Counted from the stretch's first letter, positions 2 to 30,017 are shown. The stretch: DNA of 37,854 nucleotides from Phycisphaerae bacterium (GCA_046538345.1 JBKHJB010000002.1:1-37854), one strand, 5' to 3'. Numbers and translations are program-made. Notes: a model not told the origin generated them from the sequence alone.

Positions 2-2008
2 CTAGTCCACACGGGATTCGATAAATCTCGGCCTCTCGCCGGATACGTCGATGGTCAGCTTCTCGACGCCGTCGCTCAATTGCAGCACGCCTGAGCCGAC
101 ATCCTGTTTGACATAGGGCGACTCAAACACCGGCCAGTTCTCATAGTCGAGTTTCCGGCCGTTGGTCCAGGCGTCGGGCCTGCCGCCGGGACCGCCCGTG
201 TGGCGAATCTTCAACTCGTCGTCGCGGAGCGACCTGAACGTCACCGTTCGCTCGTCGGCAAACCGCGACAGGTCCAGCTCGCATTCGTCAACAACGGCCG
301 ATCGGAAATCGCCAAAAGTTTCGTAATCGCTCTGCTGGCCGAGCTGAACCACCCACCCCGTAAGCTTCCCCGCCGAGACCAGCCAGCGATAGGTCTCGTC
401 GGAGTGGTCGGGAAGCTCGGCGAACTCGGCCCGGTCGTTGAGCGGTCTGGCGGCGAGGTAGGCCTTGTTCACCTGCCAGAAGAACCACCCTCCTTCGCGC
501 ACCGGCTCGCCGGCCGCCGCGGGTACGCCGAAGACACTCCGCTCAACCACGCGGTCCGGGTCCCCCCGGTGGCGAAGCGGCTCATGATCCGTCACGTAGC
601 AGATATTGACGGCCGCGTCGCGCGCCTGGTGGTATTGGTCGAACGGGCTGCGACCCTCCAGCGGGAAGTGCCCGTGGTAGCCGTTGGACGCTCCAAAGAC
701 CAACACGTCGCGCTTATCCAGCAGTGCCGCCTTGAACATGGTCGTTTGCGGCAGGATGGTCCCGCTGGTCCGCACCCCCTGCTCCGGCGAATAGAGCGTG
801 CCCATGGCGTACTGATCGTTGAAATACAGGACCTCCTGGTCCTTATTTGCCTCAGTCCCTTCGTAGCTGGGCTTACAGCCGCGGGCTCCGTATGGCATGG
901 GCACGTTCTTGGCGGCGATATTGCGTATCACCCGATGCGGCCGATAATTCGACAACGCCAGGTTCAGCGCCGGATATCGGTTTACCTCCACGTGCTGTCG
1001 GTCCATCCAGACGCCACGCGCCGAGGCGTCCCACCACAGCCAGCCGACCCAGTCTGTATGAGTTCCGGTCTGGGAATACCTTAGCGGCTCGGTGCCGGGG
1101 AAAGTCGGCTTGGCGCTGGTTGTGCCGACCGGCTCGCGTGCGAACCCGCGGGCTTCCGGGCCTATACTGACCCCGTGAAAATACTTGCGGGCATAAGCGG
1201 CCGCGAGCCAGTGCAACGTCGCCCGGGCGGTGTCCCGCATTTTGTCGTCCTCGCCGAAGTCGTAGATGTTGGCCAAGCTTGCCGCGCTGAAGCCGACGTA
1301 GGTGGAGCTGTCGTACTCGCCCTGCCCCACCGTGTAAAACTGCCGCGCGCGTGCTGTTATCCAGTCGGCGAGCCACTGCTTGTGTTCGTCGAAGCCCTCG
1401 CGGGGAAATCTTTCGTCCAGATACTCCGCCCAGACGTATCCGCTGCACCGGCTCATGAACCGATGGTTCTCCGTACCGCCGGACCGCATAATGCGGAAGA
1501 AGTTACGCGCGTCGTACACGTTGCTCTCGACCACGTCGGGCGGCAGTTTGTCCGCCAACTGGAAGAACAGCCGCGTCCGCTGGAAGGCGGAGAAGTGATA
1601 CAGTCCGCGGTCGCTCTTGAGCTTGTCCACTTCCATCAGATAGCGATAGAGACGTAGTCCGGCTTCGTCGCGGGGGTTCATGTAGAGCCGGGCAAGCACC
1701 ACCGGCATGGCGTACTTGTGGGGGTCTCCGCCGCCGTTGGAGAAGTAATCGGTCCGGTCGAACCAGTCGAGCAGCGCGTCGGGGTCGCGCTCGGCCGTCT
1801 GGCGGATGTAGAATCGCGCCCGGCGACGAAAGGCGGCTTCATAGGGTTCATCCAGGGGGACATCGTCCGCGGAGATACCCGCCTCGGCCGATACGGCCGG
1901 CGCATCGGCGGGCTTGGTCTGCTCCGCCGCGGCGCAGGAAGGCGCCGATGCTACCACAACCATGATGAATGAAATCAGCACGAGCTGTTTTGAGACCGGC
2001 GCGTTCAT
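2..2008 (-). CDS. Secreted protein of unknown function. Helical N-terminal half plus beta-rich C-terminal half, so possibly a polysaccharide lyase/hydrolase-like fold.
   Basis: ORF 2..2116 ends in TAG at 2-4. The first ATG is at 2008, directly preceded by AAGGAG (rc of 2015-2020). It gives an N-terminal signal peptide, MNAPVSKQLVLISFIMVVVASAPSCAAAEQ. No catalytic motif recognised with certainty. The fold guess rests on composition and pattern only (TENH and YDSSTY segments). Confidence 0.6.
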   Translation of the reverse strand: MNAPVSKQLVLISFIMVVVASAPSCAAAEQTKPADAPAVSAEAGISADDVPLDEPYEAAFRRRARFYIRQTAERDPDALLDWFDRTDYFSNGGGDPHKYAMPVVLARLYMNPRDEAGLRLYRYLMEVDKLKSDRGLYHFSAFQRTRLFFQLADKLPPDVVESNVYDARNFFRIMRSGGTENHRFMSRCSGYVWAEYLDERFPREGFDEHKQWLADWITARARQFYTVGQGEYDSSTYVGFSAASLANIYDFGEDDKMRDTARATLHWLAAAYARKYFHGVSIGPEARGFAREPVGTTSAKPTFPGTEPLRYSQTGTHTDWVGWLWWDASARGVWMDRQHVEVNRYPALNLALSNYRPHRVIRNIAAKNVPMPYGARGCKPSYEGTEANKDQEVLYFNDQYAMGTLYSPEQGVRTSGTILPQTTMFKAALLDKRDVLVFGASNGYHGHFPLEGRSPFDQYHQARDAAVNICYVTDHEPLRHRGDPDRVVERSVFGVPAAAGEPVREGGWFFWQVNKAYLAARPLNDRAEFAELPDHSDETYRWLVSAGKLTGWVVQLGQQSDYETFGDFRSAVVDECELDLSRFADERTVTFRSLRDDELKIRHTGGPGGRPDAWTNGRKLDYENWPVFESPYVKQDVGSGVLQLSDGVEKLTIDVSGERPRFIESRVD

Positions 2009-2099
2009 GGTTTTCTCCTTCCGCCTTGGACGGCATGGCGCCAGGGGCGCAGAAACTGGTACATTCACGAGCAGGCGCGAGAAAGACAATGCCGCCGAG

Positions 2100-2897
2100 C
2101 TATTCCTTCTCCTCAAGGCGGTCGACCTTGATTTCGACGTCCTCGCGGTGGCGGATCTGCTGTATTTCGCCGTCCTCCATCCAGACGATGCGGTCGGAGA
2201 CGTCGAGCATCTTATGGTCGTGCGTCGAACAGATGACGGTCACTCCCATCTCGCGGTTCATCTCCTTCATGAGATGAATTATCTGCTCGCCGGTGGTGAC
2301 GTCGAGATTGGCGGTCGGCTCGTCGGCGAGGATGATGGCGGGGGTGTTGGCGAACGCCCTGGCGATGGCGACACGCTGCTGCTGCCCGCCGGAAAGCTCC
2401 TTGGGAGTATGCAGTATGCGTTCGCCGAGTCCGACCCGCTCGAGTATCTCCACGGCCCGGTCCTGAGCGTCGTCACGCGGCACACCGGCGAAGAGCATCG
2501 GCAGCAGCACGTTCTCCACAGCAGTCATGACCTTGATGATGTTGTAGCTCTGAAAGATGTAGCCGATCTTCCGGCACCGCAGCCAGGCCAGTTCGTTGGC
2601 GTCGAGCTGGGCGACGTCTATTTCGTCGATAAAGACATTGCCGTCGGTCGGCTTGGTAAGTCCACCGACACAATTGAACAACGTCGTCTTTCCGGAGCCG
2701 GAAGGTCCCATAATGGAGATATATTCACCGGACCGGATGGACAAGCTCACATCCCGCAGGGCGTGGATGACCGCCTCGCCCATGACGTAGTCCTTGCAGA
2801 CGTTTTTGGTCATGACGGTGCAATCGACCTGCTGGTCGAGATTTGCGAACCAGTCCACATGGCCCGTTTGCTGTTGTTGCGAATTCGCGGTGGTCAT
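2100..2897 (-). CDS. ABC transporter ATP-binding protein, MacB/LolD/FtsE-type (ATPase 2 of the operon)
   Basis: Walker [11 protein letters not shown]-loop IGYIFQSYN, signature [14 protein letters not shown], Walker [13 protein letters not shown]-loop STHDH. Its ATG at 2897 overlaps the stop of the upstream permease as ATGA (2894-2897). Confidence 0.93.
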
Positions 2898-3490
2898 TTC
2901 TCACCTCGCATCGCCTCGACGGGCGGCATCTTCGCGGCGACCCACGCGGGGATGGAAGCGCCCAGAGTGGTAAGGATCATCCCGACGAAGAAAACGAACA
3001 GCACCTTCCAGGGAAGTCCGCCAAGCTCAAGCTCCGACCATATCGCGCCGCCGTGCTGCAACAACCCCAGCAGTATGGAGATAATGCCGCCGACCACGGC
3101 TCCGGCGGCGGCGCCGATAAGCCCCACCATCGCCGCTTCCAGCAGAACGCTGTAGAGCACCATGCTGTCCAGCGCCCCGAGGCATTTGATTGTTCCTATC
3201 TCACGATATCTCTGGCTGACCGACATGAGCATGGCGTTGAGCACACCGGCGGCGGCGACGATCAACGCCAGAGTCAGCATCAGATACCAGCTCTGCTGCT
3301 CGGATGTCTCCGTCTGCCGGGGCATGGTCAAAAGATACATCATGAAAGCGGTCGCCACCGTGATGGTCAAACACGTCAGAAACGACCTGAACAGACGCAC
3401 CCGCAAGCTGCTGACGGCCATCGACCAGACCACCTCGAAGCGAAGCTTCAGGTGCCCTATTTCCCAGTGGCGTACCTGCGTTTCACCCAT
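2894..3490 (-). CDS. Minimal FtsX-family ABC permease: 4 TM helices and almost no extracytoplasmic domain
   Basis: FtsX-type core SQRYREIGTIKCLGA followed by two more TM helices, ending PAWVAAKMPPVEAMR. The loop between TM1 and TM2 is only about a dozen residues (MPRQTETSEQQS). The ATG at 3490 lies 1 nt after the upstream TAG (3492-3494). The track start at 3508 is a TTG. Confidence 0.85.
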   Translation of the reverse strand: MGETQVRHWEIGHLKLRFEVVWSMAVSSLRVRLFRSFLTCLTITVATAFMMYLLTMPRQTETSEQQSWYLMLTLALIVAAAGVLNAMLMSVSQRYREIGTIKCLGALDSMVLYSVLLEAAMVGLIGAAAGAVVGGIISILLGLLQHGGAIWSELELGGLPWKVLFVFFVGMILTTLGASIPAWVAAKMPPVEAMRGEK

Positions 3491-3491
3491 A

Positions 3492-5552
3492 CTAATACCC
3501 GGTTCCAATCGAGACCCACAGGAAGTAGATTGCGATCGCCAGCATTCCGGTCAGGCCCATTCCCGCGCTGAATCCTACGGCCAGGATGGGCGCGAAGTTT
3601 GTCCATTTTTCACGGCCGAACTTCCTGGCGAAGTAGAACCGACCCAGCAGAGCGCCGATGAGCAACGGCACCGCGCGGTCGAATCGGCCTGTGAGGGTGG
3701 CGATGGCGCCGTAAACGTATTGCGTGCTGAAGCCAAAAATCGCCGAGAGTATGAAGAACGTGCACACGCCGCCGAAGGTGCCGCCGATAACCCAGGGGCG
3801 TAACGACTGCTCGAACATCAAGCTCCCTTCCTGCATCGAGGACGCCCAGAGTGCTTTCATCTGGGCGTGCTGCGGCCAGAACTTCTGGGCGAACGGGTAG
3901 CTCTCGGACGGAATGGGACCGAGGGAGTTGATATAGCTCCAGAAGATGAACGACGCTATCAGCATCAGCGGGAATACCAGCAGCTCGGCCTTGAAGATGG
4001 ACGTAAACTTCGTCCGCGTGAGCTGGCAAATCCTCAGCTTGTCGGCCATTCCTCCGAAGTTATGCAACGGCAGCGGGGCGAACCATATATCCACGTATTT
4101 GTAGCCGGACGTGAAGATGGCCGTTTCCATCACGAACGGAACACCCGCGTATTGACCGGCGATACCACTCATTCGTGCGTTGATATAGGTGTTTATCGGT
4201 GTCCAGATGAAGGCGAAACCTATCAGCCAATAGACGCTGAAACCCTTCTCGCCCTCGGGAATATTGGAGTTGACAAGGTGGTTGGTGAGGACCACGAAGC
4301 CCACCGACGCAATCATCCACACCAATACCGCCAGCCAGGTGGGTGGGTCGCCGCGGGGCTTGTCTCGACGTATCAACCCCCTCACGCTGGCAGTCTCGGG
4401 CTGGTCTTTCCGTCGTGCCCTGCTCAGCGCGCGGATCACCCCCACCAATCCGAACGCGAAAACGGCAAAAGACACGCCGATGGACACAGACAGGTACAGA
4501 TCCACCGTGTTTGAGACGTGCGTCTGTACGGCGTCCATCTGGCTGTCCCAGTGTGGCAAGTACCCGGCGGGCTGAAGGAAGAACGGATTGACCACCAGGT
4601 GCACCAGCACCGCCGAGCCGACCATTCCCAACACGATCCGCCAGGGCAGCACGCAGCCCACCAGCACAAGCGCCAGGTTCATGCTGATGGCGATAGCCGC
4701 GGCCGGGAAAATATGATTCAGGTCCTGCGTGAGGTCCCAGAACGGGATGGGTATCAGTTGCAGCGGTTCGTCGAGGAATGCTTTAGAGAGAATCGGAATC
4801 GCCATGTAGAAGATTCCGAACAGCGCACCTCCGACGATGCCTACCGCGAAGCAGTACTGGCGGAAGCCCTTCTTTCGCTGTTCCTGGCTGCGTTCGGCCA
4901 GCGCGATCGCGCCCTCTGCGTGGACCGGCGCCAGCGGGAACGGCAGCCGCTCCACATCCGCGGTGAGTTTATACGCCAGGAATCCCAGCGAAAGCTCCGT
5001 AAGCTTAGAGAGCGTCATCGCCGAGACGATCACGGCGACAACGGGCTGCCATGCAGGCCCGAGAAAGCCCTGCTGGTAGGCGACATCACCATACGGAGCG
5101 AACCAGTCCGGCACCTGGTGGGCGATTCCGAAGTTACTGAACGCCTCGGAGTTACGCAGATATCGCTGCCAGACCAGCATGGCGAACACGCCGCCACCCA
5201 GCGCCAGTCCGCCCATGATGTGGGTAAGACTGCTGACGGTGTACTTGAGTATGTACAGCTCCTGCTTGCGGAGCGTTACGAAGCTTCGTCGCGCAATTTC
5301 CACAAACAGGATGATGGTGACCCACTCGGCCGCCGTACCGAGGTCCTGACCGATCATCAGCCCCATAAAGATGACGCCCGGCAGCATGACGAAGGCCACG
5401 AAAAACGCGCCCAATATCGTCCGCCAGGTGAAACCGTCGTCGTAGGGCTCATGCTGCATCGCCTCGATGGAAAACGAGGCGTCGTAGAAACTCTCGCCCT
5501 GCTCGTCCGTCTGCTGTGCCGGCTCGTTGTTCTGATCGGGCTTCTCAGCCAC
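3492..5552 (-). CDS. Polytopic integral membrane protein, OPT-superfamily-like, many TM helices (paralog of the C-terminal part of the 11311..14559 product)
   Basis: 686-aa ORF, hydrophobic throughout. The motif ERLPFPLAPVHAEGAIAL resembles the OPT-family L-P-[FY]-P-x-G-x-A signature. The GTG start at 5552 abuts the TAA stop (5553-5555) of the giant gene and has AGGAGA upstream. An internal Met at codon 32 is an alternative start. Confidence 0.7.
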   Translation of the reverse strand: MAEKPDQNNEPAQQTDEQGESFYDASFSIEAMQHEPYDDGFTWRTILGAFFVAFVMLPGVIFMGLMIGQDLGTAAEWVTIILFVEIARRSFVTLRKQELYILKYTVSSLTHIMGGLALGGGVFAMLVWQRYLRNSEAFSNFGIAHQVPDWFAPYGDVAYQQGFLGPAWQPVVAVIVSAMTLSKLTELSLGFLAYKLTADVERLPFPLAPVHAEGAIALAERSQEQRKKGFRQYCFAVGIVGGALFGIFYMAIPILSKAFLDEPLQLIPIPFWDLTQDLNHIFPAAAIAISMNLALVLVGCVLPWRIVLGMVGSAVLVHLVVNPFFLQPAGYLPHWDSQMDAVQTHVSNTVDLYLSVSIGVSFAVFAFGLVGVIRALSRARRKDQPETASVRGLIRRDKPRGDPPTWLAVLVWMIASVGFVVLTNHLVNSNIPEGEKGFSVYWLIGFAFIWTPINTYINARMSGIAGQYAGVPFVMETAIFTSGYKYVDIWFAPLPLHNFGGMADKLRICQLTRTKFTSIFKAELLVFPLMLIASFIFWSYINSLGPIPSESYPFAQKFWPQHAQMKALWASSMQEGSLMFEQSLRPWVIGGTFGGVCTFFILSAIFGFSTQYVYGAIATLTGRFDRAVPLLIGALLGRFYFARKFGREKWTNFAPILAVGFSAGMGLTGMLAIAIYFLWVSIGTGY

Positions 5553-8500
5553 TTAGCCGCTCTCCTGGATTTCGCTGTGCTGGTCACGGAACAGTTCGGC
5601 GCCCTCGGTTATGTAGTTCATACGCGCGTCGTTGTCGAGGTTACGCCACAGAAGGAACTGGTGCCTGACCAGGTCCATGAAACCGTAATTCGTACGCAAC
5701 CATGCGTCCTCGGTGCCGGAGAAGCGATGGAGATTCAGTTGCACACCGAAGACTCCCTCGTTCTCGGTGGGAACTATCTTCATCTCCATCTTCTGAGCGA
5801 CGTCGAGGTCGTACGGACTGAGCCACATATCCGCTCGGATCCGTAAAGCTTCCTCCTCGCCGCTGAGCATATCCAGCTCTATATTCCGGCAGTTGAAGCC
5901 CGGGCTGGCCGCCTCGGTGTGATTCAAGAGAAACCGCCGGAAGAACGCCATCATACCCACGGCGTTACCGCGGGTCAGTGTGAAAGGCAGGTCGAAATGG
6001 ATGCTGTGATCCGACGGCTCGGGCAGTTCCCACTTACCCATGCCGCTGGGCGCGGCCAGGCGGGCGGCCTTGTTGGCGGGCACGAGAGTCGCCAGCAGCA
6101 CCACCACGCCGGTCAGCATAGCCAGTCCCAGCGCCGAGAGAGAGGTGAAGTTCAAGCTCAGGCCCGCCAGGAACTCCGGGTTCACGTTCTGCACCCAGCC
6201 GACAATGTTGGCGAACAACAGGCCGGAAAAGGTGCCGAAAACGATACCCAATACGCTGAAGACCGACGATTCGCTCAGCAGCAGGAAAGATATCTGACCC
6301 GGTGAAAGGCCGATCGCGCCGAGCATGCCGACCTCACCCTTTCGCTCCTCGACGTTGGCGAGCATCGTGTTCAGCACAATGAGTATGCAAAGGAGAACCG
6401 GGACGACGATCTTCGCCAGACCGCCGATGCTCGAAACGTTCTTCGCGGTCACCAGCGCCGGCTCACCGTCCCTGGTGCCGAAGACGGTTCTGTTGGTCCG
6501 CAGCGCGAAGTCCTTGTAGAACTGCGCCTGGTCCTGGTTTCCACCGAAACGCACGGCCACCGAGCGATTCTTGGCTTGCACCTCGTCGGAGGCGGCGTGC
6601 GGGACGATCGCCAGATCTTTCCAGCTCATGTGGTACAGGGGCTTTTCGTTGATTATATCCCCACTGCCGGCGCTGGCGGTTATGGCACTGCGCCGATAGT
6701 CCACCATCGCAAGCGACTTGCCGTTGACGTCGCGAATGCGGTCCGCGTGGTCGGTGTCCAGTATGCCGACGACGCGCCATTCGCGGTTTCGCATCAACAC
6801 CTTGGGCAACTCATCCTCATCGAGGCGGTTGCCGTCCTCGTCGTAGATCATATCGGGCGTTATGCCGACCGCCTCTGCGCAATTGTCCGGCAGTATGACC
6901 GCGAATCGCTCGGCCGGAATCCCGCGCGACCTGTCCTCCGCACGGAACCATTCGTTGTTGCTAACCGCCTCGTTCAGACCGCTGAAATCCGGCTCGTTCG
7001 GCATAAACGTCATTACGCCCGTGATGATGTCCATCCGGTCGCCGTGGCGGACCTTGATCTGATTGACCCCCTCACGGTCCATATTGTTTCCACCCTCGAC
7101 CTCGAGATAGTAGCCACGGGTGGTCATCTCGTGCTCCGGTCCGAACTCGCTGTAAACCGCCGAGACAAAGGTGTCTTTCAGTTCCGTCCAGGAGAAGTTG
7201 CGGAACATTATCCCTTCGTACTTCGGAGCCAGCGGGTCCACCCTCCGCCCGGCTACGTCCTGCTCAAGCGGTACGGGGCGAATGTGCATCTCGTCTTCGC
7301 CGCGGACCGATACAAAGGTAATTATCGAGAACGTCAGCACGGTTACGGTAAAGACGGTCAGGAACGTCCTCGCCGGTCGTTTCTTGAGGTTCGAGACACC
7401 CAGCGAAAGGGCCGTTCCCAGCGACCCCATCAGACTTATCTCGTCGCCTTCGACCTCACCGGCGGCCGCCCTGGCGCGACGCACCAGCACCTCGAACCGC
7501 TGGTAACTCAAGACCAGCACGATCAGCGCCATCAATATCATCGTGAAGGCGATCATCACCACGAACGGCGAGACGGCAATGTCGAACGCCGGGTGGAAGA
7601 ACTTCATGAACACCACGCCCAGCACAAAGATTATCGCCGTTCCCACCAGCCGGGCGACGATGCTGCTACCGCCAATGACCAGACGCTCCAGAAACGCGCT
7701 GGCCGGGACGAGCAGACCCATGAGTATTACCGCACTGAAGACGGCCTCGCGACCCAGCTTCAGGATACGCGGCAGGTTCTTGACCAGGATACCCCAGCCC
7801 TCTCGGGCAAGCCCGACGGACGACTGCCAGTCATGCTCTTCGGCGGCCTGGCGAGACCTGTCTATTTTCGCCCGGCTACGTTCCAGCGCGTCATAGACCG
7901 AGGAGTCATGAATCCCAAACTGCTCATAGAGGTCGTAGCGGTACCGCGCGATGCGGTACATATCCTCGGCAACCCGCAGAGGCGTCAGCGGGAGCACCAG
8001 GTTGCGGTCATTCCCGTCGGGACCTACGGCGTAGCCCTCGCCCTTGAGGTCCATGACTTCCTTCGTCTCCTGGTCCTTGGCTTTCTCGGGCAAATCGCCG
8101 ACGAGCAACATCTTGTACTGCATGCTCTTCTGCGCCAGCACTCTGGCTCTGCGACGCTCGGGCTTGTACTGCTCGGGATCGAATCCGGGAATATCCTCCA
8201 GACCCGGCAGTCCCTCCCCCAACTGGCGTTGCTCGTACGACATATACAGAACCGTAGAATCGACATCCTGCTCTGAATACTGCAACTGCGGATTGTCCAG
8301 GGCATAGTGCCGGGGTGAACCATTGCGGACGGCGTCAACCACCCTCAGATCCTGGCGGTCCCCAGCAGTTCCTCCGATGGGCTGATAGTCCATCGGGTCC
8401 GGACCGGGAGCGAACACCCACGGGTACACATCGGCGAGGATCAGGTTCTTTTCCTCGTCTTCACCGTCGCGGAGTTTGAATGTCATCGACTGCTGCTGGG

Positions 8501-11294
8501 TGCCGAGCTGTCCGCGATCCATCGCCTTGTCAAACAGCGCCCTGTCGCGGTTGAGGCGATATGCGTAAATTAACGGCTCGCCCTTGCTGACGCTGTAATC
8601 GACCGTCTCCAGCGGCATACTGTAGCTGCCGTTCTGCAGCGTAATCCGCAGTATGCCCCGGCGAGACCCCATGTAGGTAGCGCTATTCTTGGTCGCGCTT
8701 GCCCAGTCAACATTTTTCAGAGCCGGGTAGTACACCCAACTGCGCGCCACAGGTGCGGTGGCATTGATGCCCGAGCGGATGTTGTACTCAACGGCCGCTC
8801 CGAGCAGGCGTCCGAAAGCCGGTGCATCCACCTTGTCGGGAGCGAGAGAGTCCGTGGGATTCTCCACACCCAGCTTGGTGAGCAGCAGCATAGTCCGCGC
8901 CTGGACGGAAAGGTTCTCGAAGTCCGTATGCTCCGGCGTGTCGTGCGGAGTGTCCAGCAGTTCGCGGCGGTCATTGTATGTCGAAGCCGGCAGCAACGCC
9001 ACATTACCCGCGGTCCAGAACTCAGAGTAGTGCGTCGCGCCTTCAGGGACGACCATCGGGAACTCGCTCTGGTCCTCGTCCCGTAACCAGGACCACTGCT
9101 CGTCCCAGCCGGCGCGTATGCCGGCAAAACCCACAACCTTGCTGAATCTCTCGGCCAGTCGTTCCGCATTGCCCGCACCGGCCGGTCCGACGTCTCTGAA
9201 CTCTTTGGCTGTATTCATCCCCACAGACGACGAGCCCTGCGACAAGTCGTAAAGCCATGCCAGAACCGGCTCTTGTCCCTCGGGATGCAGCAAGTCCATG
9301 CATTTACCGACCACCTCGATGTTGTTCTCGTGGAAGGAATGCGTTTCGACTTCCTCAGCAAGCTCCCGCCTTAATCTGTCGGCAAGGTCTTTCTGGGTAA
9401 CATCGTAGTATTGGAAATACTCCCGGTGCTCTTCTTCGCCGAGACGCTGCCAGAACGCCTTGATGCGCTCAGCCCAGCTCCAGCTCTGGTTTCGGAGTGT
9501 CTCGCGACGAATGTCACTGAGGAAGTCCATCCACTGCTGATAGCGGTCGATAACCTTCTGCATCGACGCGTATCGCTCGTCGTGTATCTCCTTGAATTTC
9601 TGCTCGTAGAGGTCCTCGTCCCGCTCGCGGAGGTCGGAAAGCTCGTCTCGAAGCTGCGAGTCGAGCGCTTGCTGACGTTTGATAATCTCCACGCGGGTTT
9701 CGGCGATGGTGACTCGCGCCTTTTCGAGCTGGCGCGGCAGCCAGTCCATACCGAACCACAACGCGACCTCGTCGTCCAGCGGGGCCTGCTCGGCGTCATC
9801 CAGCCAGTCGGCGACAGCCCTGTATTTGGCAATCTTCTCCTGCGGGTCCGCGACAAATGGCGATCCAAGCCCGTCTTCCTTGTTCAGCAGAACATATTCG
9901 CCGAATGTCCGACTGCTCAGCCCGCCGACGTTTTCGGCGTCCAGGAACGCGAAGACTACGCCCTTGCGGCGGATTACCGACTCGCTGGTCGCCAGGTGCT
10001 CCATCGCCGTCAACGCCACGGCTAGATTGGTCGCCACCTTCGCCCCGTGCGGGGCGCCCGGAACGACAGAGACGCTGTCTATGGGCACCTGAACCATGAC
10101 CGTGTCGTCGGCGTTGGGGATGGTCAGAACCTGCCCCGGCTGGAGATAACGCGTTTCGAGGTCGTTGGCCTCGGCTAAGGCGTCGGCGGAAAGAGCGTAG
10201 TCCGAGGCGATGCGACTGAGAAGCTCGCCTTCCTGGATGGGCACCGGGTCTTCCTGGTTTGGTACCAGCAGATCGTCAACACCGGTCAGCTCCGGCGAAT
10301 CCAGTCCGTTGTCCTCCATCAGACGGCTCGGACTCACGCCGTATTCTGTCGCGATGCGGTCCAGCAGATCGCCCCTGCGGACCTCGTATTTGACCGGCTC
10401 GGTGGGCGGAAGGTAGGCGAAGATGGACTCAAAACGGCGGTTGGCGTAGGTGTTGCCGCCTCGCAGCCGACACTCGCTGCCCTGTGCTATCTCCGGCTCG
10501 TCGCCACCGTCGCGATATACCTTGCGCGTAGCGTGGCTGCGGATTTCCCGACCGGTCTCCGCGTCGACATAGAATCGCGGCATCGGCACCGGCGTGTTGC
10601 AGAACAACCCCTCGGCTTTCTCGCGGCTTACGCGGTCGTCCTCCACAACCACCACGGCCCGGGCGCCAAGCGACATCAGACGGTCCCAACGTCGCCCGCC
10701 CTGGAAATCCATCAGGACAATAGCGCCGTCGAGATCCAGCCCCTTGATCTCGTCCCAGTCTCCGATACCCACGTCGATAAGAGGCCCGGAAAGCCCGTCC
10801 TTCGGGCACAGCGAGGGCATCGCACCGTTCGGCCAGAGCGGCTGGAGGACCCAGCTCTCATCCCCGACCGTCAATGTAGCGGGCTTCCCTCTTTTTTCGG
10901 GGTCTTCCAGCCGGTCCAGGGAAACAGGCACAGCCACCCGCCCCTTCAACGAACCGACGTACTCAACACCATCGTCCTGGAGATCCTCTATCCGCTCCAG
11001 CAGATAGTTGTGGATCGGGGCACGTCCCTGCTCGTCGTAGTCGCGAGACCCGATACCAAGGTTGCCGCCGCAGCGCGACAGGATTTGCTCGACCTGTTCC
11101 CGAAGCGCCTCGGCCGAGGTCACCTCCTCGATCTCGTCGAGTGACTCCTGGGAAAGTACGGCCGTGTTATCCAGACGGCGCCTTTCCAGGGATGAGAGTT
11201 CGTCCGCTCGTCGCGCGCTATAGTCGGTCTGCGCCGACGCGGCGACCGCCTGCAAGAGCAGCACGCAGAGGAGGATCGCCGATTTCTTGATCAT
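5553..11294 (-). CDS. Giant (1913 aa) envelope protein. Order of parts: signal peptide or anchor, M28-like/PA ectodomain with 2 LysM modules and a coiled-coil insert, 3 TM, a MacB-like module (TM, ~290-aa ectodomain, FtsX TM triplet), and a 164-aa cytosolic tail.
   Basis: ATG at 11294 with GGGAGAG upstream. N-terminus MIKKSAILLCVLLLQAVAASA/QT. PA-like block LWPNG...GAIVLMDFQGGRRWDRLMSLGARAVVVVED. Two LysM-like blocks (YEVRRGDLLDRIATEYGVSPSRLMEDNGL...LLVP and IQEGELLSRIASDYALSADALAEANDL...QVLTIP). FtsX core VEERKGEVGMLGAIGLSPGQISFLLLSES. MacB-type N-helix LSLGVSNLKKRPARTFLTVFTV. Confidence 0.9.
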   Translation of the reverse strand: MIKKSAILLCVLLLQAVAASAQTDYSARRADELSSLERRRLDNTAVLSQESLDEIEEVTSAEALREQVEQILSRCGGNLGIGSRDYDEQGRAPIHNYLLERIEDLQDDGVEYVGSLKGRVAVPVSLDRLEDPEKRGKPATLTVGDESWVLQPLWPNGAMPSLCPKDGLSGPLIDVGIGDWDEIKGLDLDGAIVLMDFQGGRRWDRLMSLGARAVVVVEDDRVSREKAEGLFCNTPVPMPRFYVDAETGREIRSHATRKVYRDGGDEPEIAQGSECRLRGGNTYANRRFESIFAYLPPTEPVKYEVRRGDLLDRIATEYGVSPSRLMEDNGLDSPELTGVDDLLVPNQEDPVPIQEGELLSRIASDYALSADALAEANDLETRYLQPGQVLTIPNADDTVMVQVPIDSVSVVPGAPHGAKVATNLAVALTAMEHLATSESVIRRKGVVFAFLDAENVGGLSSRTFGEYVLLNKEDGLGSPFVADPQEKIAKYRAVADWLDDAEQAPLDDEVALWFGMDWLPRQLEKARVTIAETRVEIIKRQQALDSQLRDELSDLRERDEDLYEQKFKEIHDERYASMQKVIDRYQQWMDFLSDIRRETLRNQSWSWAERIKAFWQRLGEEEHREYFQYYDVTQKDLADRLRRELAEEVETHSFHENNIEVVGKCMDLLHPEGQEPVLAWLYDLSQGSSSVGMNTAKEFRDVGPAGAGNAERLAERFSKVVGFAGIRAGWDEQWSWLRDEDQSEFPMVVPEGATHYSEFWTAGNVALLPASTYNDRRELLDTPHDTPEHTDFENLSVQARTMLLLTKLGVENPTDSLAPDKVDAPAFGRLLGAAVEYNIRSGINATAPVARSWVYYPALKNVDWASATKNSATYMGSRRGILRITLQNGSYSMPLETVDYSVSKGEPLIYAYRLNRDRALFDKAMDRGQLGTQQQSMTFKLRDGEDEEKNLILADVYPWVFAPGPDPMDYQPIGGTAGDRQDLRVVDAVRNGSPRHYALDNPQLQYSEQDVDSTVLYMSYEQRQLGEGLPGLEDIPGFDPEQYKPERRRARVLAQKSMQYKMLLVGDLPEKAKDQETKEVMDLKGEGYAVGPDGNDRNLVLPLTPLRVAEDMYRIARYRYDLYEQFGIHDSSVYDALERSRAKIDRSRQAAEEHDWQSSVGLAREGWGILVKNLPRILKLGREAVFSAVILMGLLVPASAFLERLVIGGSSIVARLVGTAIIFVLGVVFMKFFHPAFDIAVSPFVVMIAFTMILMALIVLVLSYQRFEVLVRRARAAAGEVEGDEISLMGSLGTALSLGVSNLKKRPARTFLTVFTVTVLTFSIITFVSVRGEDEMHIRPVPLEQDVAGRRVDPLAPKYEGIMFRNFSWTELKDTFVSAVYSEFGPEHEMTTRGYYLEVEGGNNMDREGVNQIKVRHGDRMDIITGVMTFMPNEPDFSGLNEAVSNNEWFRAEDRSRGIPAERFAVILPDNCAEAVGITPDMIYDEDGNRLDEDELPKVLMRNREWRVVGILDTDHADRIRDVNGKSLAMVDYRRSAITASAGSGDIINEKPLYHMSWKDLAIVPHAASDEVQAKNRSVAVRFGGNQDQAQFYKDFALRTNRTVFGTRDGEPALVTAKNVSSIGGLAKIVVPVLLCILIVLNTMLANVEERKGEVGMLGAIGLSPGQISFLLLSESSVFSVLGIVFGTFSGLLFANIVGWVQNVNPEFLAGLSLNFTSLSALGLAMLTGVVVLLATLVPANKAARLAAPSGMGKWELPEPSDHSIHFDLPFTLTRGNAVGMMAFFRRFLLNHTEAASPGFNCRNIELDMLSGEEEALRIRADMWLSPYDLDVAQKMEMKIVPTENEGVFGVQLNLHRFSGTEDAWLRTNYGFMDLVRHQFLLWRNLDNDARMNYITEGAELFRDQHSEIQESG
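6048..7370 (-). other. MacB-like permease module 2 of the giant protein: TM1, ~290-aa extracytoplasmic domain, FtsX TM2-4
   Basis: Hydrophobic RTFLTVFTVTVLTFSIITFVSV, then a soluble segment, then GGLAKIVVPVLLCILIVLNTMLANVEERKGEVGMLGAIGL...LLATLVPANKAARLAP-type FtsX ending. Confidence 0.8.
10116..10388 (-). other. Two tandem LysM (peptidoglycan-binding) modules inside the giant protein (aa ~303-393)
   Basis: Both repeats follow the LysM pattern: Y/I-x-V/-x-x-G-D/E-x-L-x-x-I-A-x-x-Y, then a helix, N-x-L, and a final hydrophobic strand ending in P. Confidence 0.75.
10590..10877 (-). other. PA (protease-associated) domain-like insert in the giant protein (aa ~140-235)
   Basis: LQPLWPNGAMPS...LSGPLIDVGIGDWDEIKGLDLDGAIVLMDFQGGRRWDRLMSLGARAVVVVED matches the PA-domain pattern (G-x-I-x-L-x, R-G-x-x-x-F, K-x-x-x-A-x-x-x-G-A-x-x-V) by eye. 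Confidence 0.6.
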
Positions 11295-11310: not shown

Positions 11311-14300
11311 TCAATAGACCGAAGGACTGTAAGGCATGTGATCCTGGAACTGCTTGAGGATGCCCTCGGTACCGGCCTCGCCGACCTCCGCGGAGATCGA
11401 CGCGATCAGGTCCACACAGTTCCACAGGAACACGCACATCACCGCTCCGACCACCAGGCCGATGAAAAACGGCTTCGCTCGCTTGTAAGAATACATGCCG
11501 CCGTACTTGACGACCAGTTTCTTGATAACCCAGGCCACCAGAACACTGCCCCACAGCCAGGAGGTCTCACCGGCGATTCCGGAACCTCCCTTGTAGTAGG
11601 GCGAAACCCATTCGTAATAGACGGACAAAAGCAACAGCATGTATCCCAAGGGGTGGAACGGGAACCGGAGGAACCTGTTGCGAAGGAACGTCAAAACAAG
11701 CAGAGCGCCCGCACCGACCATCATGAAGTGGATCCTCACCCAGTGCGGGTCGGTAAACTGCCCCAGTCCGACCTCGCCCAGGAAGTGAGAGACCCACAAC
11801 GGATAGTGCGCCAGGCCCTGGCTGCTGGTGGGGCCTTGTCCGCTGACGCCGGCATCGGCGCCGGCGTAGAATTCATTTCCGTAGTAGTAGGAAAACGCCA
11901 GGAAGCTCACCATCCCGACCGACAGGGCCACCAGGAACGCCACCAGCCCCGCCACCGCTATTGTTTTGTATTTTACCTTATTCCGGCGGGCCAGTTCAAT
12001 GTTCTCGAGATGCTGCGGGAGCGTCCGGAAAAGCAGCGTCACCGGCAGGAAAACGATGTTCACAAACAACGCGTAAGTCTTGGCGCCGGTGGCGCCGGTA
12101 AGCCCGAATACCATGGGGAACTTGCTGTACTCGTAAGAACAGTGGTGTGTAGGCAGTCCCGTTTCCGCACGGACCCTGGCGCCCGCGATGGTCTGCGCCA
12201 TCACCAGAAGCGCAAACAGCGCCAGGAACCAGGACGACGCCGGCGAAAAGCCCATATTCCACAGCAGCAGCAGGACAACGACCGGTAGAACGATCAGTCC
12301 GAAAAGGTTCAGCCGACGCGGGATAAAGTGGTCGGCCTGAATCTCCGAATCCTGCCGGCGGCCCAGGCGGAAGCTCTTGTAAAGAGTTACCCCGGTGAAC
12401 GCCACCACCGCGCCAAGCATCTGTTCCATGGGGAACGGGAACATCCGTCCCGCGGCCCAACCGGTGTAAACGCTGTCCCGCGGAACCTGATCCATCGATA
12501 TGTTGGTGAAGAAGATTATGAAGCTGTAGATGAAAAACAGCACCCATACCGAGAAGCTGATTTCCAGACTGACCAGGAATGCAATACCGATAACTATCGG
12601 CGAAAGAACAAGCTGGACCTCGTCCATCTCCTTCAGGACACCGGTCTTGAAGACCTTATCGGAGATATTATAGGCCATCAGGTACTCGCGAGAGACCAGC
12701 CCGTAGTGCCCGGCGGCCTCGGCGGTCAACCAGATAAGCCCTATTCCCAGTCCCAGCAGGAAAATGGGATTGAACTGCATTCGCCGTTTGGGCGGATCCC
12801 GCGGGTCCACCGACAGCTCAAGCTCCCAGTCGTGACGGATAATGCTGTCGGCCACGTCCACCAGAGGGAACGCCAGATTCTCCCGCTCCACCCATTTGCG
12901 CCGCAGCCACTCGGCCATGCACATCAGGAACAGAAAGACAGACGTGAACAGCAGCCCCCACATCACCATCGGACGAACCCACAGATGCCACGGCAGGTCT
13001 CTGAACAGCGTTCGAATGTTCTGCCTCAAGGGCACATCCTGCTTGCGTCTCTGCTCGTCGAGCGTCCTCCACAAGCTCTCGTTGAAGCCATCGAGGTTCT
13101 GGTCGGGCGTCCCGCCACTGCCGTCCTGTCGCCGAATCGCCTGCCGCTCCCGCCGGGTGAGACGATAGACGAAACTATTGCGGAGCTGGTCGAACTCCGC
13201 ATCGTCCATCTGCTCGTAGCTGCTGAGATAGTGACTCGACAATCGATCCAATACACGCCGAAAGTCCGAGTCGCTCAAAGAGGTAACCTGTTTACGAATA
13301 TCCTCGAACCGCTTTTCGAGCCACTGTTTCTGCTCGGTGAGCTTCGAGTGGCGCTGCTCATCGAGCCCCTCGACTGTGAAATCGATACGCTCCTTGCTGT
13401 CCACATCGAAGCTCTCGTAATTGACCGGAATCAGACTGGCCGCGAACTCGCTGGTATTGACCAGCTTCTCGGGCAGTTCCTCGGCCGCCTCGGCGCTGCG
13501 TTCCAGGGTCTCCTGATATCGCTGCCGCAACAAGCCCGCCAGCCCCATCCGCTCCAGCGCCTCGCCCGCTTTCGCGCCGCGAGCGCCCTGCTCGTGTCGC
13601 TCGGCCAGCTCGATAATCCTGCGCAGTTGATCCGGCCCCATTCGGCGTATGTTCTCGGTGAGTTCCTCTATCTCCTCCCGGGTCGGTTCAGCTTCCCGGG
13701 CGGTTTCACCCGCCTGAATCGCGTCCAACCTCTCCGCCTCGGCTTGAATCGCCTCCAGCAGGCGTTGAGCGGGCTCGCTAAGCTCATCCAGCACTTCGCC
13801 CTCGGGCGCGTCAACACCCGGCGCCGTTGCGGCTTCTGGGATTCCGGGCTTGGGTTCGTCGGCCCGCTCGGCCGCACGCTCCAGCAAAGCCCCCAACTCC
13901 AGCGACTCAAGGGCATCCGGGTCGGCGACGGCCTGTATCTTCGCGGCCTCGTCGGGAGACAAACCCTCGGCGACTTCTGTGAGTCGCTCAATCCCTTCAC
14001 TGTCGGGTTTGTTTTGACGTGCCTGTTCGGCCTTTTCCAGCCGTATTAATCGCTGCGACTCCAGCAACAACGCGGCCGCCGCCTTTCGGCGGGCCTCCTC
14101 CTGTTCTTTGATTATTTCGTCGTCGCGCAGCAGCCGAAGAAGGCGGTCGGACTTGTTCCACGCCACCCCCTTCTTGGTCGGAACCAGCGGGAACCAGTCT
14201 TCGTTGAGAACGTTGTAGGCGGTCCTGTAGGTGCTGGTGCCCTGCTCGAGATACTCGCGCATCACGGCGTTCATCGTCAGGAAGCACTGCCGCACCATGC

Positions 14301-14559
14301 CGATATTCATAACCGGCACGGAAATGGTGAGCATGCTGTAGAGAATGACCAGACTGGCCTTGCCGACAATCGGTCTGAGAAACCGCAGCACCGCCAGCGC
14401 CAGCACGATACTGAAGATGATTCCCACCGCCCAGCCGACCGGAGTTGCCGTCTCCAGGTCGAGATTGACCGTCATGATCGTAAGGAACTGGCTGAGCGGG
14501 GCGATCAGGGCGATAAGGAACACGCCCACAAGCACCGTCACCACATGTGACAACTTCAT
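11311..14559 (-). CDS. Large polytopic membrane protein (1082 aa): 3 N-terminal TM helices, a ~420-aa charged alpha-helical soluble insert, then an OPT-like multi-TM body
   Basis: ATG at 14559 (MKLSHVVTVLVG...) is preceded by AAGGAAG. The track start at 14598 adds a basic, non-hydrophobic extension. The insert is rich in E/R/A/L (EEARRKAAAALLLESQRLIRLEKAEQARQ...). After it comes the motif WVERENLAFPLVDV and more than 12 hydrophobic helices. Stop TGA at 11311-11313. Confidence 0.85.
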   Translation of the reverse strand: MKLSHVVTVLVGVFLIALIAPLSQFLTIMTVNLDLETATPVGWAVGIIFSIVLALAVLRFLRPIVGKASLVILYSMLTISVPVMNIGMVRQCFLTMNAVMREYLEQGTSTYRTAYNVLNEDWFPLVPTKKGVAWNKSDRLLRLLRDDEIIKEQEEARRKAAAALLLESQRLIRLEKAEQARQNKPDSEGIERLTEVAEGLSPDEAAKIQAVADPDALESLELGALLERAAERADEPKPGIPEAATAPGVDAPEGEVLDELSEPAQRLLEAIQAEAERLDAIQAGETAREAEPTREEIEELTENIRRMGPDQLRRIIELAERHEQGARGAKAGEALERMGLAGLLRQRYQETLERSAEAAEELPEKLVNTSEFAASLIPVNYESFDVDSKERIDFTVEGLDEQRHSKLTEQKQWLEKRFEDIRKQVTSLSDSDFRRVLDRLSSHYLSSYEQMDDAEFDQLRNSFVYRLTRRERQAIRRQDGSGGTPDQNLDGFNESLWRTLDEQRRKQDVPLRQNIRTLFRDLPWHLWVRPMVMWGLLFTSVFLFLMCMAEWLRRKWVERENLAFPLVDVADSIIRHDWELELSVDPRDPPKRRMQFNPIFLLGLGIGLIWLTAEAAGHYGLVSREYLMAYNISDKVFKTGVLKEMDEVQLVLSPIVIGIAFLVSLEISFSVWVLFFIYSFIIFFTNISMDQVPRDSVYTGWAAGRMFPFPMEQMLGAVVAFTGVTLYKSFRLGRRQDSEIQADHFIPRRLNLFGLIVLPVVVLLLLWNMGFSPASSWFLALFALLVMAQTIAGARVRAETGLPTHHCSYEYSKFPMVFGLTGATGAKTYALFVNIVFLPVTLLFRTLPQHLENIELARRNKVKYKTIAVAGLVAFLVALSVGMVSFLAFSYYYGNEFYAGADAGVSGQGPTSSQGLAHYPLWVSHFLGEVGLGQFTDPHWVRIHFMMVGAGALLVLTFLRNRFLRFPFHPLGYMLLLLSVYYEWVSPYYKGGSGIAGETSWLWGSVLVAWVIKKLVVKYGGMYSYKRAKPFFIGLVVGAVMCVFLWNCVDLIASISAEVGEAGTEGILKQFQDHMPYSPSVY

Positions 14560-14617
14560 GCCGCTTCCTTTATGCCTGGCCCGCCATCGCGGGCACACGC
14601 CTATTACGGGTGGGAAG

Positions 14618-15358
14618 TCACTGTTCCTGGTCGATCGAGCCGACCGAGATATTCAGATCCTCACGCTCGACGATCCGCTCGACCTGTCCGTCGCGCAGAT
14701 ATACCACGCGGTCGGAAACGTCCAGCATGCGATGGTCGTGTGTCGCCGAAACGACCGTCACGCCCTTCTCGTCGCTCAGTTCGCTGAGCAACTGAACGAT
14801 CTCGTGCCCGGTCTGGGAGTCCAGGTTCCCTGTCGGTTCATCCGCCAGCAGCAAGCTGGGGTCGTTGGCCATCGACCTGGCGATCGCAACTCGCTGCTGC
14901 TGCCCGCCGGAAAGCTCTCCGGGAAGGTGCTTGAGTCGGTACTCCAGTCCCACGCGAGTCAGCACCTCCGCGGCTCGCTGTTCGGCGGCGTCCTTGTCCA
15001 TGCCCAGTATGCGCATGGGCAACATCACGTTGTCCAACGCGCTAAACACCTCAATCAGGTTGTAGTTCTGGAAGATGTACCCGATGTTTACGCATCGCAG
15101 GTACGCCAGCTCCGGCGCAGAGAGGTCCAGCAGGTTCCTTCCGCCCAGGTGGATGGTCCCCTTGGTGGGAAAGTCCAGGGCGCCTACCATGTTGAAGAAG
15201 GTGGTCTTTCCCGAGCCGGAAGGACCCATCAGTGAGATATACTCGCCCTGGTGGATGTCCAGGTTGATCCCGCTGAGCGCGTAAACGACTGTGTCGCCGG
15301 TCTTATAAACACGCTCCAGGTCACGGGCCTCGATGAGAATCTCGTCGGTCTTTGGCAT
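14618..15358 (-). CDS. ABC transporter ATP-binding protein, MacB/LolD/FtsE-type (ATPase 1, first gene of the operon)
   Basis: Walker [49 protein letters not shown]. The first ATG is at 15358 ([19 protein letters not shown]). The track start at 15436 is TTG and adds an atypical extension. Confidence 0.92.
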
Positions 15359-15480
15359 CGTCTCGTGCGTGTCTTTGCGCCGGGCCGCCGGACCGCTCGA
15401 CCCTGGGGCTTGAATGCAGACAATCGGGGCTTTCAAGTCCGGCTCGCCGCGTCGGAACCGGACACGCTGGATACATCCGG

Positions 15481-29877: not shown

Positions 29878-30017
29878 GATGCCTCCTCGTATTCTGGTTG
29901 TAGCGCCGACCGGCGGCAACGACCCCGCGTGAGCTACCAGGAAAATACGTGCGAGCCGGCGAGCGCGGTTGCCGGTCGTCCTCGTGACGACCGCTCGCGG
30001 GGTGGACAGGTCAATGT

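Follow-up and report, generated by a model that had tools for sequence, protein, structure and literature searches.

ATP-binding cassette (ABC) systems of type VII, among them MacB, LolCDE, FtsEX, BceAB and YbbAP, are the main examples of ABC proteins that perform mechanical work in the periplasm rather than transport across the membrane. Each newly characterised member of this class has revealed a different output. Here we describe a gene from a 37,854-nt stretch of DNA of a Phycisphaerae bacterium (GCA_046538345.1, JBKHJB010000002.1:1-37854; the whole stretch is hereafter called the window). The gene occupies positions 5553-11294 of the minus strand and encodes a 1913-residue protein, here called BIG, that belongs to the MacB/FtsX-fold superfamily and is not an FtsX orthologue, a duplicated FtsX permease or an active M28 peptidase. 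We propose, with a probability of roughly 50%, that BIG is the large subunit of a type VII (MacB/FtsX-fold) ABC mechanotransduction system, in which a pseudo-aminopeptidase ectodomain and a single MacB-type module work with a small FtsX partner encoded nearby in the service of permeases.

Among the described systems, MacB and LolC-LolE share the full MacB layout with aa 1288-1747 of BIG, and LolD/MacB-type ATPases are likewise encoded alongside. BIG differs from them in what surrounds this module: a 1160-aa pseudo-peptidase ectodomain and an extra set of three transmembrane (TM) helices precede it and a 164-aa cytoplasmic domain follows it. No MacA/TolC-like or LolA-like partner was seen in the inspected loci, the partners being instead two polytopic permeases and a small protein that we call mini-FtsX. 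The FtsEX systems, which act with EnvC, PcsB, CwlO or RipC, have in common with BIG the superfamily, the idea of an ATP-driven periplasmic signal, a degenerate enzyme-like domain and peptidoglycan-binding modules. However, the degenerate domain of BIG is M28-like rather than of the LytM, CHAP or NlpC type, it is fused to the permease rather than separate, and a hydrolase was not seen in the gene module. The comparison with FtsEX made in an initial annotation of the window therefore survives as a conceptual likeness and fails as an identification, since no NCBIfam FtsX model matched the protein and its fold is nearest to MacB and LolC/E. BceB, YbbP and ADOP are also large permeases of the FtsX family and likewise exceed four TM helices, but they hold two recognisable FtsX domains per chain, whereas BIG holds one and the second lies in a separate 204-aa protein. 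BceB (7tcg, 8g3a) is asymmetric, with one extracellular domain and an N-terminal FtsX half that lacks one, an arrangement that resembles the pairing we propose for BIG and mini-FtsX. YbbAP-TesA is reported to be a type VII ABC system whose partner is a hydrolase-fold protein of the periplasm (PMC12646458); TesA is an active and separate esterase, while the hydrolase-fold domain of BIG is fused and, by its residues, degenerate.

The BIG reading frame comprises 1913 uninterrupted codons from an ATG start, and its GC content (about 0.59-0.64 over 5553-11294, about 0.58-0.66 over the whole window) displays no compositional break. The plus-strand reading of the same interval was discarded, as its translation is riddled with stops. 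Thirty-eight homologues of 1712-2242 aa align with BIG from end to end at 40-83% identity (BLAST coverage 49-100%), the nearest relative, at 83%, coming from a Phycisphaerae metagenome-assembled genome (MAG), and eight more distant homologues (23-27% identity) on independent contigs retain the same domain order. Close relatives show the same gene boundaries on contigs of 129-214 kb. These homologues, from Phycisphaerae and other MAGs, carry no annotation beyond "LysM peptidoglycan-binding domain-containing protein" or "FtsX-like permease family protein". The initial annotation had allowed that the chain might be an artefact, either an assembly chimera or two genes joined by a frameshift. Against this stand full-length colinear homologues, among them the 38 proteins above, whose independent contigs number in the dozens and come from several phyla and separate studies, and we regard the chance of an artefact as negligible. 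The 1913-residue protein is real and conserved, and is not a chimera.

Kyte-Doolittle hydropathy marked hydrophobic segments at aa 1-24, three within aa ~1182-1272, one at aa 1307-1332 and three within aa 1619-1748. Together with Pfam and AlphaFold2 (AF2), this located every part that had been listed from the sequence, from the hydrophobic N-terminus to the C-terminal tail, near the residues originally given. We modelled the membrane part (aa 1150-1913) with AF2, obtaining a mean predicted local distance difference test (pLDDT) score of 80 and a predicted template modelling (pTM) score of 0.60. The model runs from a stalk continuous with the first TM helix (TM-A) through a turn, TM-B, a loop with the motif HPAF, TM-C, a disordered acidic stretch and an amphipathic helix to TM1, a mixed alpha/beta domain of ~290 aa, TM2, a short coupling helix, TM3, TM4 and the C-terminal domain. 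In Foldseek searches this part matched MacB (5gko, E 7.5e-12; 5lil), LolC/E (LolC 7e-11), HrtB, YtrF, YbbP and BceB over ~500 columns, and also the isolated MacB periplasmic region (5c59), whereas the match to FtsX (8tzk) was far weaker than that to MacB, at E 0.02. Among NCBIfam models the 1913-aa protein drew no FtsX match and just weak ADOP and LolC/E matches.

By position, this module begins in a cytoplasmic linker (aa 1268-1306, 7377..7493; all parts of BIG are on the minus strand) with a MacB-type amphipathic helix before TM1. The linker contains LSLGVSNLKKRPARTF, whose counterpart in relatives aligns to the pre-TM1 helix of MacB 5lil, within a homologous segment that was aligned to 5lil residues 270-458. 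TM1 (aa 1307-1329, 7308..7376), placed by hydropathy, AF2 and the MacB alignment, leads into a MacB-type periplasmic domain of ~290 aa (aa 1330-1620, 6435..7307; pLDDT ~90), which was recognised by Foldseek and, in relatives, by Pfam MacB_PCD. The FtsX triplet follows (TM2, coupling helix, TM3 and TM4; aa 1621-1747, 6054..6434). It contains the Pfam FtsX match (PF02687, aa 1631-1746, E 2.6e-16) and retrieved YtrF, LolF, LolC and MacB in profile searches of the Protein Data Bank (PDB). Residues ~1288-1747 thus form one complete MacB-type module, and the C-terminal FtsX part with its ~290-aa ectodomain is, as first read, a genuine module of the MacB/FtsX fold.

Mean pairwise identity among the homologues is highest in the coupling-helix region (0.88), with 0.79 in the linker and 0.65 in the C-terminal tail, and this concentration of conservation in cytoplasmic parts is consistent with coupling to an ATPase. 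The tail itself (aa 1748-1913, 5556..6053) forms a conserved cytoplasmic domain. To our knowledge canonical MacB/FtsX-family permeases end soon after TM4, so the 164-aa domain is an unusual addition. AF2 predicts a beta-alpha-beta4-alpha-alpha fold for it, and 20 of its columns are invariant across both clades at ~25% identity. The tail had no Pfam or PDB sequence match, and Foldseek returned weak, partial matches to KA1/START-like folds (E ~0.02-0.04).

The three TM helices that follow the large ectodomain (TM-A, TM-B and TM-C; aa 1184-1267, 7494..7745) had been read as a second, diverged FtsX triplet. On that account BIG would be a covalent tandem, in which one MacB-type module is made up of an uncleaved N-terminal TM1, a first periplasmic domain enlarged about five-fold and the first triplet, and the C-terminal part is another, for eight TM helices as in BceB, YbbP and ADOP. 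The order of a hydrophobic N-terminus, an ectodomain and three TM helices is indeed that of a MacB module, TM-A, like TM2 of MacB, continues from a long stalk helix in the periplasm, and duplicated permeases exist, with YbbP (9ge7) and BceB (7tcg) among the Foldseek matches. The triplet itself, however, gave no FtsX signal in any search. Pfam did not find FtsX in the isolated region aa 1149-1290 at E<=10, and FtsX occurs once in the 1913-aa protein. In hhalign comparisons the first triplet matched the second with a probability of 0.3-2.4% (1.0% with a broader profile) and the neighbouring mini-FtsX with 0.2%, while the positive control, the second triplet against mini-FtsX, gave 96% (E 5e-9). 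A 12-sequence profile of the first triplet spanning both clades retrieved no MacB, Lol or FtsX chain from the PDB at E<=10, and the NCBIfam ADOP model scored 24.6 bits against the whole protein, for a cut-off of 622.

The predicted structure also speaks against a tandem. Helix A (model residues 7-57) and helix B (63-84) are linked by a turn of five residues, where FtsX holds the helix that couples to the nucleotide-binding domain (NBD); the first triplet therefore lacks a coupling helix, which in the second triplet lies at model residues 503-511. At the N-terminus, the hydrophobic stretch ends in A19-S20-A21 before Q22. In the 46 homologues the N-terminus is likewise short and poorly conserved and ends in an AxA-type site, nearly all having a basic n-region and a hydrophobic core of 10-20 residues, and its mean pairwise identity is 0.23, compared with 0.48-0.77 for the seven TM helices. 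A helix of a conserved four-helix bundle would not be expected to vary so much. Being short, unconserved and AxA-ended, the N-terminus (aa 1-21, 11232..11294; MIKK, a hydrophobic core and A-S-A|Q) is probably a Sec-type signal peptide that is cleaved, which leaves seven TM helices and one FtsX domain. Finally, the co-conserved mini-FtsX gene could provide a second FtsX half separately. We conclude that the first triplet is a family-specific three-TM bundle rather than an FtsX domain, and that two complete MacB-type modules in one chain, or a covalent dimer of eight TM helices, are very unlikely. Three TM helices behind a large ectodomain need not be an FtsX module.

This topology places the ~1160-aa N-terminal region outside the cytoplasm, as originally proposed. 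The linker after TM-C carries eight Lys or Arg residues and is therefore cytoplasmic; with three TM helices before it, the large N-terminal region must lie on the other side of the membrane, a placement that also fits a signal peptide and LysM domains. Within the bundle, three residues are invariant across both clades, namely P1197, P1235 and E1203, the last of which sits where TM-A reaches the cytoplasm, and H1234 is nearly so. H1234 and P1235 belong to the HPAF motif, which lies in the periplasmic loop between TM-B and TM-C. This conservation suggests a functional or interaction site.

We next consider the ectodomain, which was modelled with AF2 as aa 23-1181 from 45 sequences (mean pLDDT 91.7, pTM 0.90). 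Foldseek matched it to the aminopeptidase BSAP (6hc6, E 2e-11), to 2ek8, PaAP and 3iib, and to TfR1 and GCPII, all with a probability of 1.00 and with alignments that extend over ~800 query columns. By sequence the M28 signal in BIG is below cut-off (Pfam E 0.0045 at aa 394-465), but relatives score 32-53 bits for M28 and also contain Pfam PA. The assignment to the PA/M28 fold, weak by sequence in BIG itself, is thus firm through the predicted structure and the relatives. Nicastrin and nicalin appeared as weak sequence matches.

Three segments are inserted into the M28-like fold, namely a PA domain, a pair of LysM domains and a four-helix bundle. The first part (aa 22-299, 10398..11231) consists of N-terminal helices, the first M28-like strands and the inserted PA domain (AF2 pLDDT >90, Foldseek, and a profile match to the PA region of 2ek8). 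The LysM pair (aa 300-393, 10116..10397) was recognised by Pfam, with two stretches at 66.3 bits against a gathering score of 20.9 (E 2.4e-18), and a profile search of the PDB matched it to the double LysM structures 4uz2 and 4xcm (E 4e-15; 4uz2 3.7e-15). The first half of the M28-like core (aa 394-507, 9774..10115) holds the degenerate metal-site motifs PIDS, GAPHGAK and DAEN and was located by Pfam M28 and by alignment to 2ek8 and 6hc6. An insertion of ~160 aa with four long helices follows (aa 508-669, 9288..9773; H486-647 in model numbering, from DSSP assignments of the AF2 model), the least conserved part of the protein with a mean pairwise identity of 0.25. The second half of the core (aa 670-815, 8850..9287), with the motifs LDLS and DTPxD, was assigned from Foldseek alignments and alignment blocks. 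Beyond it lie one or more beta-rich domains (aa 816-1103, 7986..8849; AF2 DSSP), for which no Pfam match was found, and a three-helix periplasmic stalk (aa 1104-1183, 7746..7985; AF2) that runs into TM-A. The early description of a LysM/PA/M28-like ectodomain is borne out by Pfam LysM, by the AF2 model (pLDDT 92) and by Foldseek.

The distant clade lacks LysM, as do some close members. To judge from this distribution, the LysM pair is a clade-specific addition with a putative role in peptidoglycan binding, and such binding would be accessory to the family rather than part of its core.

The metal site has lost canonical ligands among the five of M28 (H, D, E, D, H) and at the catalytic Glu position. 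We aligned the distant clade residue by residue to the active enzymes 2ek8 and 6hc6 and carried the positions to the clade of BIG by alignment columns. The first zinc His is replaced by Ile in the clade of BIG and by Tyr in the distant clade, and the bridging Asp by His and by Asp/Glu, respectively. The Glu-Glu pair reads Glu-Asn or is variable in the clade of BIG and reads His-x in the distant one, while the last zinc His is Tyr in the former and variable in the latter. Both the distant clade and the wider superfamily read YYDS, PGAE and GH at the M28 metal positions. An active peptidase elsewhere in the superfamily was sought and rejected: P0076 and P0105 score higher for M28, yet they carry identical degenerate motifs. 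D406 and D785 are invariant (D785 in 45/45 sequences), and we presume that they correspond to positions outside the M28 metal site. H416 and the GH of other clades are conserved replacements of zinc ligands. Because the di-zinc ligands are replaced, the M28 domain is predicted to be a pseudo-aminopeptidase. Of the claim that a peptidase-like domain is fused to the permease, the fusion therefore holds, with the domain lacking zinc ligands and being a likely pseudo-enzyme.

The PA-domain M28 aminopeptidases (BSAP/YwaD, the Aneurinibacillus aminopeptidase 2ek8 and PaAP) have the same PA-inserted M28 fold as the BIG ectodomain. Transferrin receptor, nicastrin and nicalin resemble BIG further, in that their zinc ligands are lost and they are tethered to the membrane beside a membrane machine. 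Relative to the M28 family, BIG adds two LysM domains, a 160-aa helical bundle, the beta-rich domains and the fusion to an ABC module.

BIG is encoded within an operon on the minus strand, in the order ABC_A, DUF6785/4, BIG, OPT-like, mini-FtsX, ABC_B and a secreted protein. ABC_A (14618..15436; true start probably Met at aa 27) and ABC_B (2100..2897) are ATPases of the LolD/MacB/FtsE type by profiles and motifs. Both scored 224-231 bits with the LolD model of NCBIfam and 204-205 with the FtsE model, below the equivalog cut-offs. They form distinct orthologue groups, and their Walker A, Walker B, signature and H-loop motifs are canonical. We considered whether a degenerate ATPase site might betray an NBD heterodimer of the obligate kind; with both ATPases canonical, this was uninformative. 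The gene at 11311..14598 encodes a 1095-aa polytopic protein with DUF6785 and DUF6784 (Pfam, 156 and 81 bits), and that at 3492..5552 a 686-aa polytopic protein tentatively assigned to the OPT superfamily through orthologues that pass the Pfam OPT model: two of these, at 58% and 38% identity, reached 36.5 and 37.4 bits, where the gathering score is 25.8. BLASTP found nothing between these two polytopic neighbours in a search for remote paralogy, and hhalign gave a weak match (probability 26%, E 7e-4, 174 columns). Mini-FtsX (2894..3508, 204 aa) has an amphipathic helix and four TM helices and matches Pfam FtsX at E 2.3e-16 and the second triplet of BIG at 96% in hhalign. Its TM1 and TM2 are separated by ~11 residues, so that it lacks a periplasmic domain. 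The mini-FtsX gene is co-conserved with BIG and invariably neighbours ABC_B.

The last gene of the operon, at 2..2116, encodes a protein of ~670 aa with a signal-peptide-like N-terminus, and is a frequent last gene of the module, present in many related loci. This protein had no Pfam, NCBIfam or PDB match; its 59 homologues, from MAGs of the PVC group (Planctomycetota, Verrucomicrobiota and Lentisphaerota), Kiritimatiellae and Armatimonadetes, are all annotated as hypothetical.

Gene spacing is tight. The DUF6785/4 gene lies 16 nt upstream of BIG, the OPT-like gene begins right after the BIG stop codon (0 nt), mini-FtsX overlaps the OPT-like gene and ABC_B overlaps mini-FtsX; BIG and the OPT-like gene also abut or overlap in several related loci. 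In a tblastn survey of 49 loci, the large majority carry the six-gene set where the contig reaches far enough. The OPT-like gene is directly downstream of BIG in every locus with sequence there, and in the related loci the orthologues of ABC_A lie upstream of both BIG and the DUF6785 gene. The two polytopic genes flank BIG in related loci wherever the flanks are present. Mini-FtsX and ABC_B relocate as a unit, being found upstream in six loci and inverted in one. At 30% identity, a Marinimicrobia locus still contains all six genes. The most divergent arrangement was at a locus (L003) whose BIG is 23% identical: it encodes BIG, the OPT-like protein, both ATPases and a second FtsX protein of 521 aa with a helical extracytoplasmic region, and the DUF6785 gene was not detected there.

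These associations suggest how the parts might work together. The three-TM bundle anchors the stalk and brings the chain back to the cytoplasm. The MacB-type module would pair with mini-FtsX to form an asymmetric dimer of transmembrane domains, like a BceB split into two chains; the second FtsX half is thus probably supplied in trans by mini-FtsX. The two co-conserved LolD-like ATPases would power this dimer, with ATP binding and hydrolysis flexing the single periplasmic domain, which would in turn act on the adjacent giant ectodomain, held at the peptidoglycan by LysM in the clade of BIG. The ectodomain may be a non-catalytic ligand-binding platform, for which the M28 ancestry makes a peptide or protein terminus the most plausible ligand. 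This platform would serve the OPT-family and DUF6785/6784 permeases, whose genes are translationally coupled to BIG.

In the most specific form of this proposal, a type VII motor (BIG, mini-FtsX and two ATPases) would be mechanically coupled to the OPT and DUF6785 permeases through the three-TM adaptor and a peptidoglycan-tethered pseudo-aminopeptidase receptor, for ATP-powered capture and hand-over of periplasmic peptides or wall fragments. We hold that full picture to be improbable. The coupling to permeases, taken alone, is a weak claim that we make tentatively and consider somewhat unlikely. If true, the model would for the first time tie secondary transporters to a mechanotransmission ABC system, and it would give bacteria a parallel to the way in which nicastrin and transferrin receptor use a dead M28 domain.

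A different output, suggested by the FtsEX comparison, would be the regulation of wall hydrolysis: the degenerate peptidase would play the part of EnvC, PcsB or RipC and activate a separate hydrolase, with LysM positioning the complex on the sacculus. The LysM pair is significant, the nearest NCBIfam match of the LysM region is the division endopeptidase DipM (far below cut-off), the degenerate enzyme domain parallels the degenerate LytM domain of EnvC, and the ectodomain contains a long helical insert. A peptidoglycan hydrolase gene was not seen, however, in the inspected loci or among the eight conserved module genes tracked, and the absence of LysM from the distant clade and some close members, the lack of an NCBIfam FtsX match and the Foldseek values (E 0.02 for FtsX, 1e-11 for MacB/Lol) all point away from it. 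The conserved partners are, moreover, two polytopic permeases, which are absent from FtsEX systems. We regard a wall-hydrolysis regulator as decidedly unlikely. Permease coupling is preferred over it because it is the permease genes that are conserved beside BIG and coupled to it in translation, because inspection of the conserved module genes showed no wall hydrolase and because LysM is dispensable in related clades.

The nearest structural matches raise a serious rival to permease coupling. MacB, LolC/E and HrtB are the top hits, and characterised type VII systems all act outward or within the periplasm, so BIG might serve extraction or export in the manner of LolCDE, HrtBA, YbbAP-TesA or DevCA. 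The MacB-type module would extract an envelope component, either lipid-linked or hydrophobic and perhaps flipped by its polytopic partners, and hand it to the ectodomain for delivery towards the wall or outer membrane. Glycoside-hydrolase-like genes near some loci (GH42-like in the window, weakly GH39-like in locus L002) would fit such a role, but they are not conserved with the module. A MacA-like adaptor, an outer-membrane factor or a LolA-like carrier was not seen in the inspected loci or among the conserved module genes, and the characterised OPT-family proteins are known as importers. We judge outward extraction unlikely, while treating it as a serious competitor.

Several points weigh against the proposal of a mechanotransduction system that serves permeases. 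None of the characterised type VII ABC systems is known to operate together with an importer, and permease coupling would thus be without precedent. The copy of the OPT-like protein in the window has no Pfam OPT match of its own, and its assignment comes from the orthologues. The BIG/mini-FtsX heterodimer is drawn solely from gene co-conservation, and the joint movement of mini-FtsX with ABC_B fits two separate homodimeric transporters equally well. For the protein itself, signal-peptide cleavage was judged by eye and from conservation, and the C-terminal AF2 model reached a pTM of just 0.60. Losing the canonical zinc ligands leaves room for a different chemistry, several of the replacements being conserved. 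Finally, every homologue found comes from a MAG.

A scan of one genome per species recovered the gene in 46 genomes, all of them MAGs. The carriers were Phycisphaerae and other Planctomycetota, Verrucomicrobiota (Opitutales, Puniceicoccaceae and Oceanipulchritudo), Victivallales and one Marinimicrobia. The system is thus found mainly in the PVC group, with outliers in Marinimicrobia. The carriers are abundant degraders of polymers, their cell envelopes are unusual and genetic tools for them are few; in such organisms, a conserved multi-gene envelope machine is therefore a concrete target for study.

To examine the wider family, we searched aa 470-1290 against 1.84 billion representative proteins. 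With a limit of E<=1e-3 this returned 814 clusters (50% identity), and with E<=1e-10 it returned 322. Most of the wider matches cover just the stalk, the three-TM bundle and the linker (query 615-820), in proteins of 1400-2900 aa. Sampled members, from MAGs of Sumerlaeia, Poribacteria and Planctomycetota, combine M28 and FtsX, sometimes with MacB_PCD, LysM or Big_5. The short matches P0091, P0173, P0153, P0125 and P0158 start or stop inside domains and are contig-end fragments. The initial annotation had asked whether orthologues encode the ectodomain as a separate gene beside a normal FtsX; no naturally split version, with the ectodomain and three TM helices apart from the FtsX module, was found among the short matches inspected. 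The chassis of a pseudo-M28 ectodomain, stalk, three-TM bundle, MacB module and C-terminal domain is therefore old and widespread in uncultured bacteria. The architecture spans Planctomycetota, Verrucomicrobiota, Lentisphaerota and beyond, with the chassis in at least 800 sequence clusters.

A full-text literature search found no paper on DUF6785 or DUF6784, and no description of an M28-FtsX or LysM-FtsX fusion or of the six-gene cluster. The impression recorded at the outset, that such an architecture had not been described, agrees with this search, and the novelty of the architecture and of the six-gene module is well supported. To the type VII class the family adds a fused and apparently dead PA/M28 ectodomain, a three-TM adaptor, a C-terminal domain, an FtsX partner without a periplasmic domain and two linked permeases.

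Elsewhere in the window, the gene just upstream of the module (15606-17732, minus strand) encodes a glycoside hydrolase family 42 (GH42)-like protein, with a trimerisation domain at E 5e-14 and a weak catalytic domain match. It is retained in the closest relatives alone and is therefore probably not part of the system. On the plus strand, 24124-27639 encodes a 1171-aa protein with a sodium:solute symporter domain at aa 703-1105, preceded by 702 N-terminal residues without a Pfam match. Farther along, a gene at 28420-29919 (minus strand) belongs to the MttB family (trimethylamine methyltransferase-like, E 6e-95).

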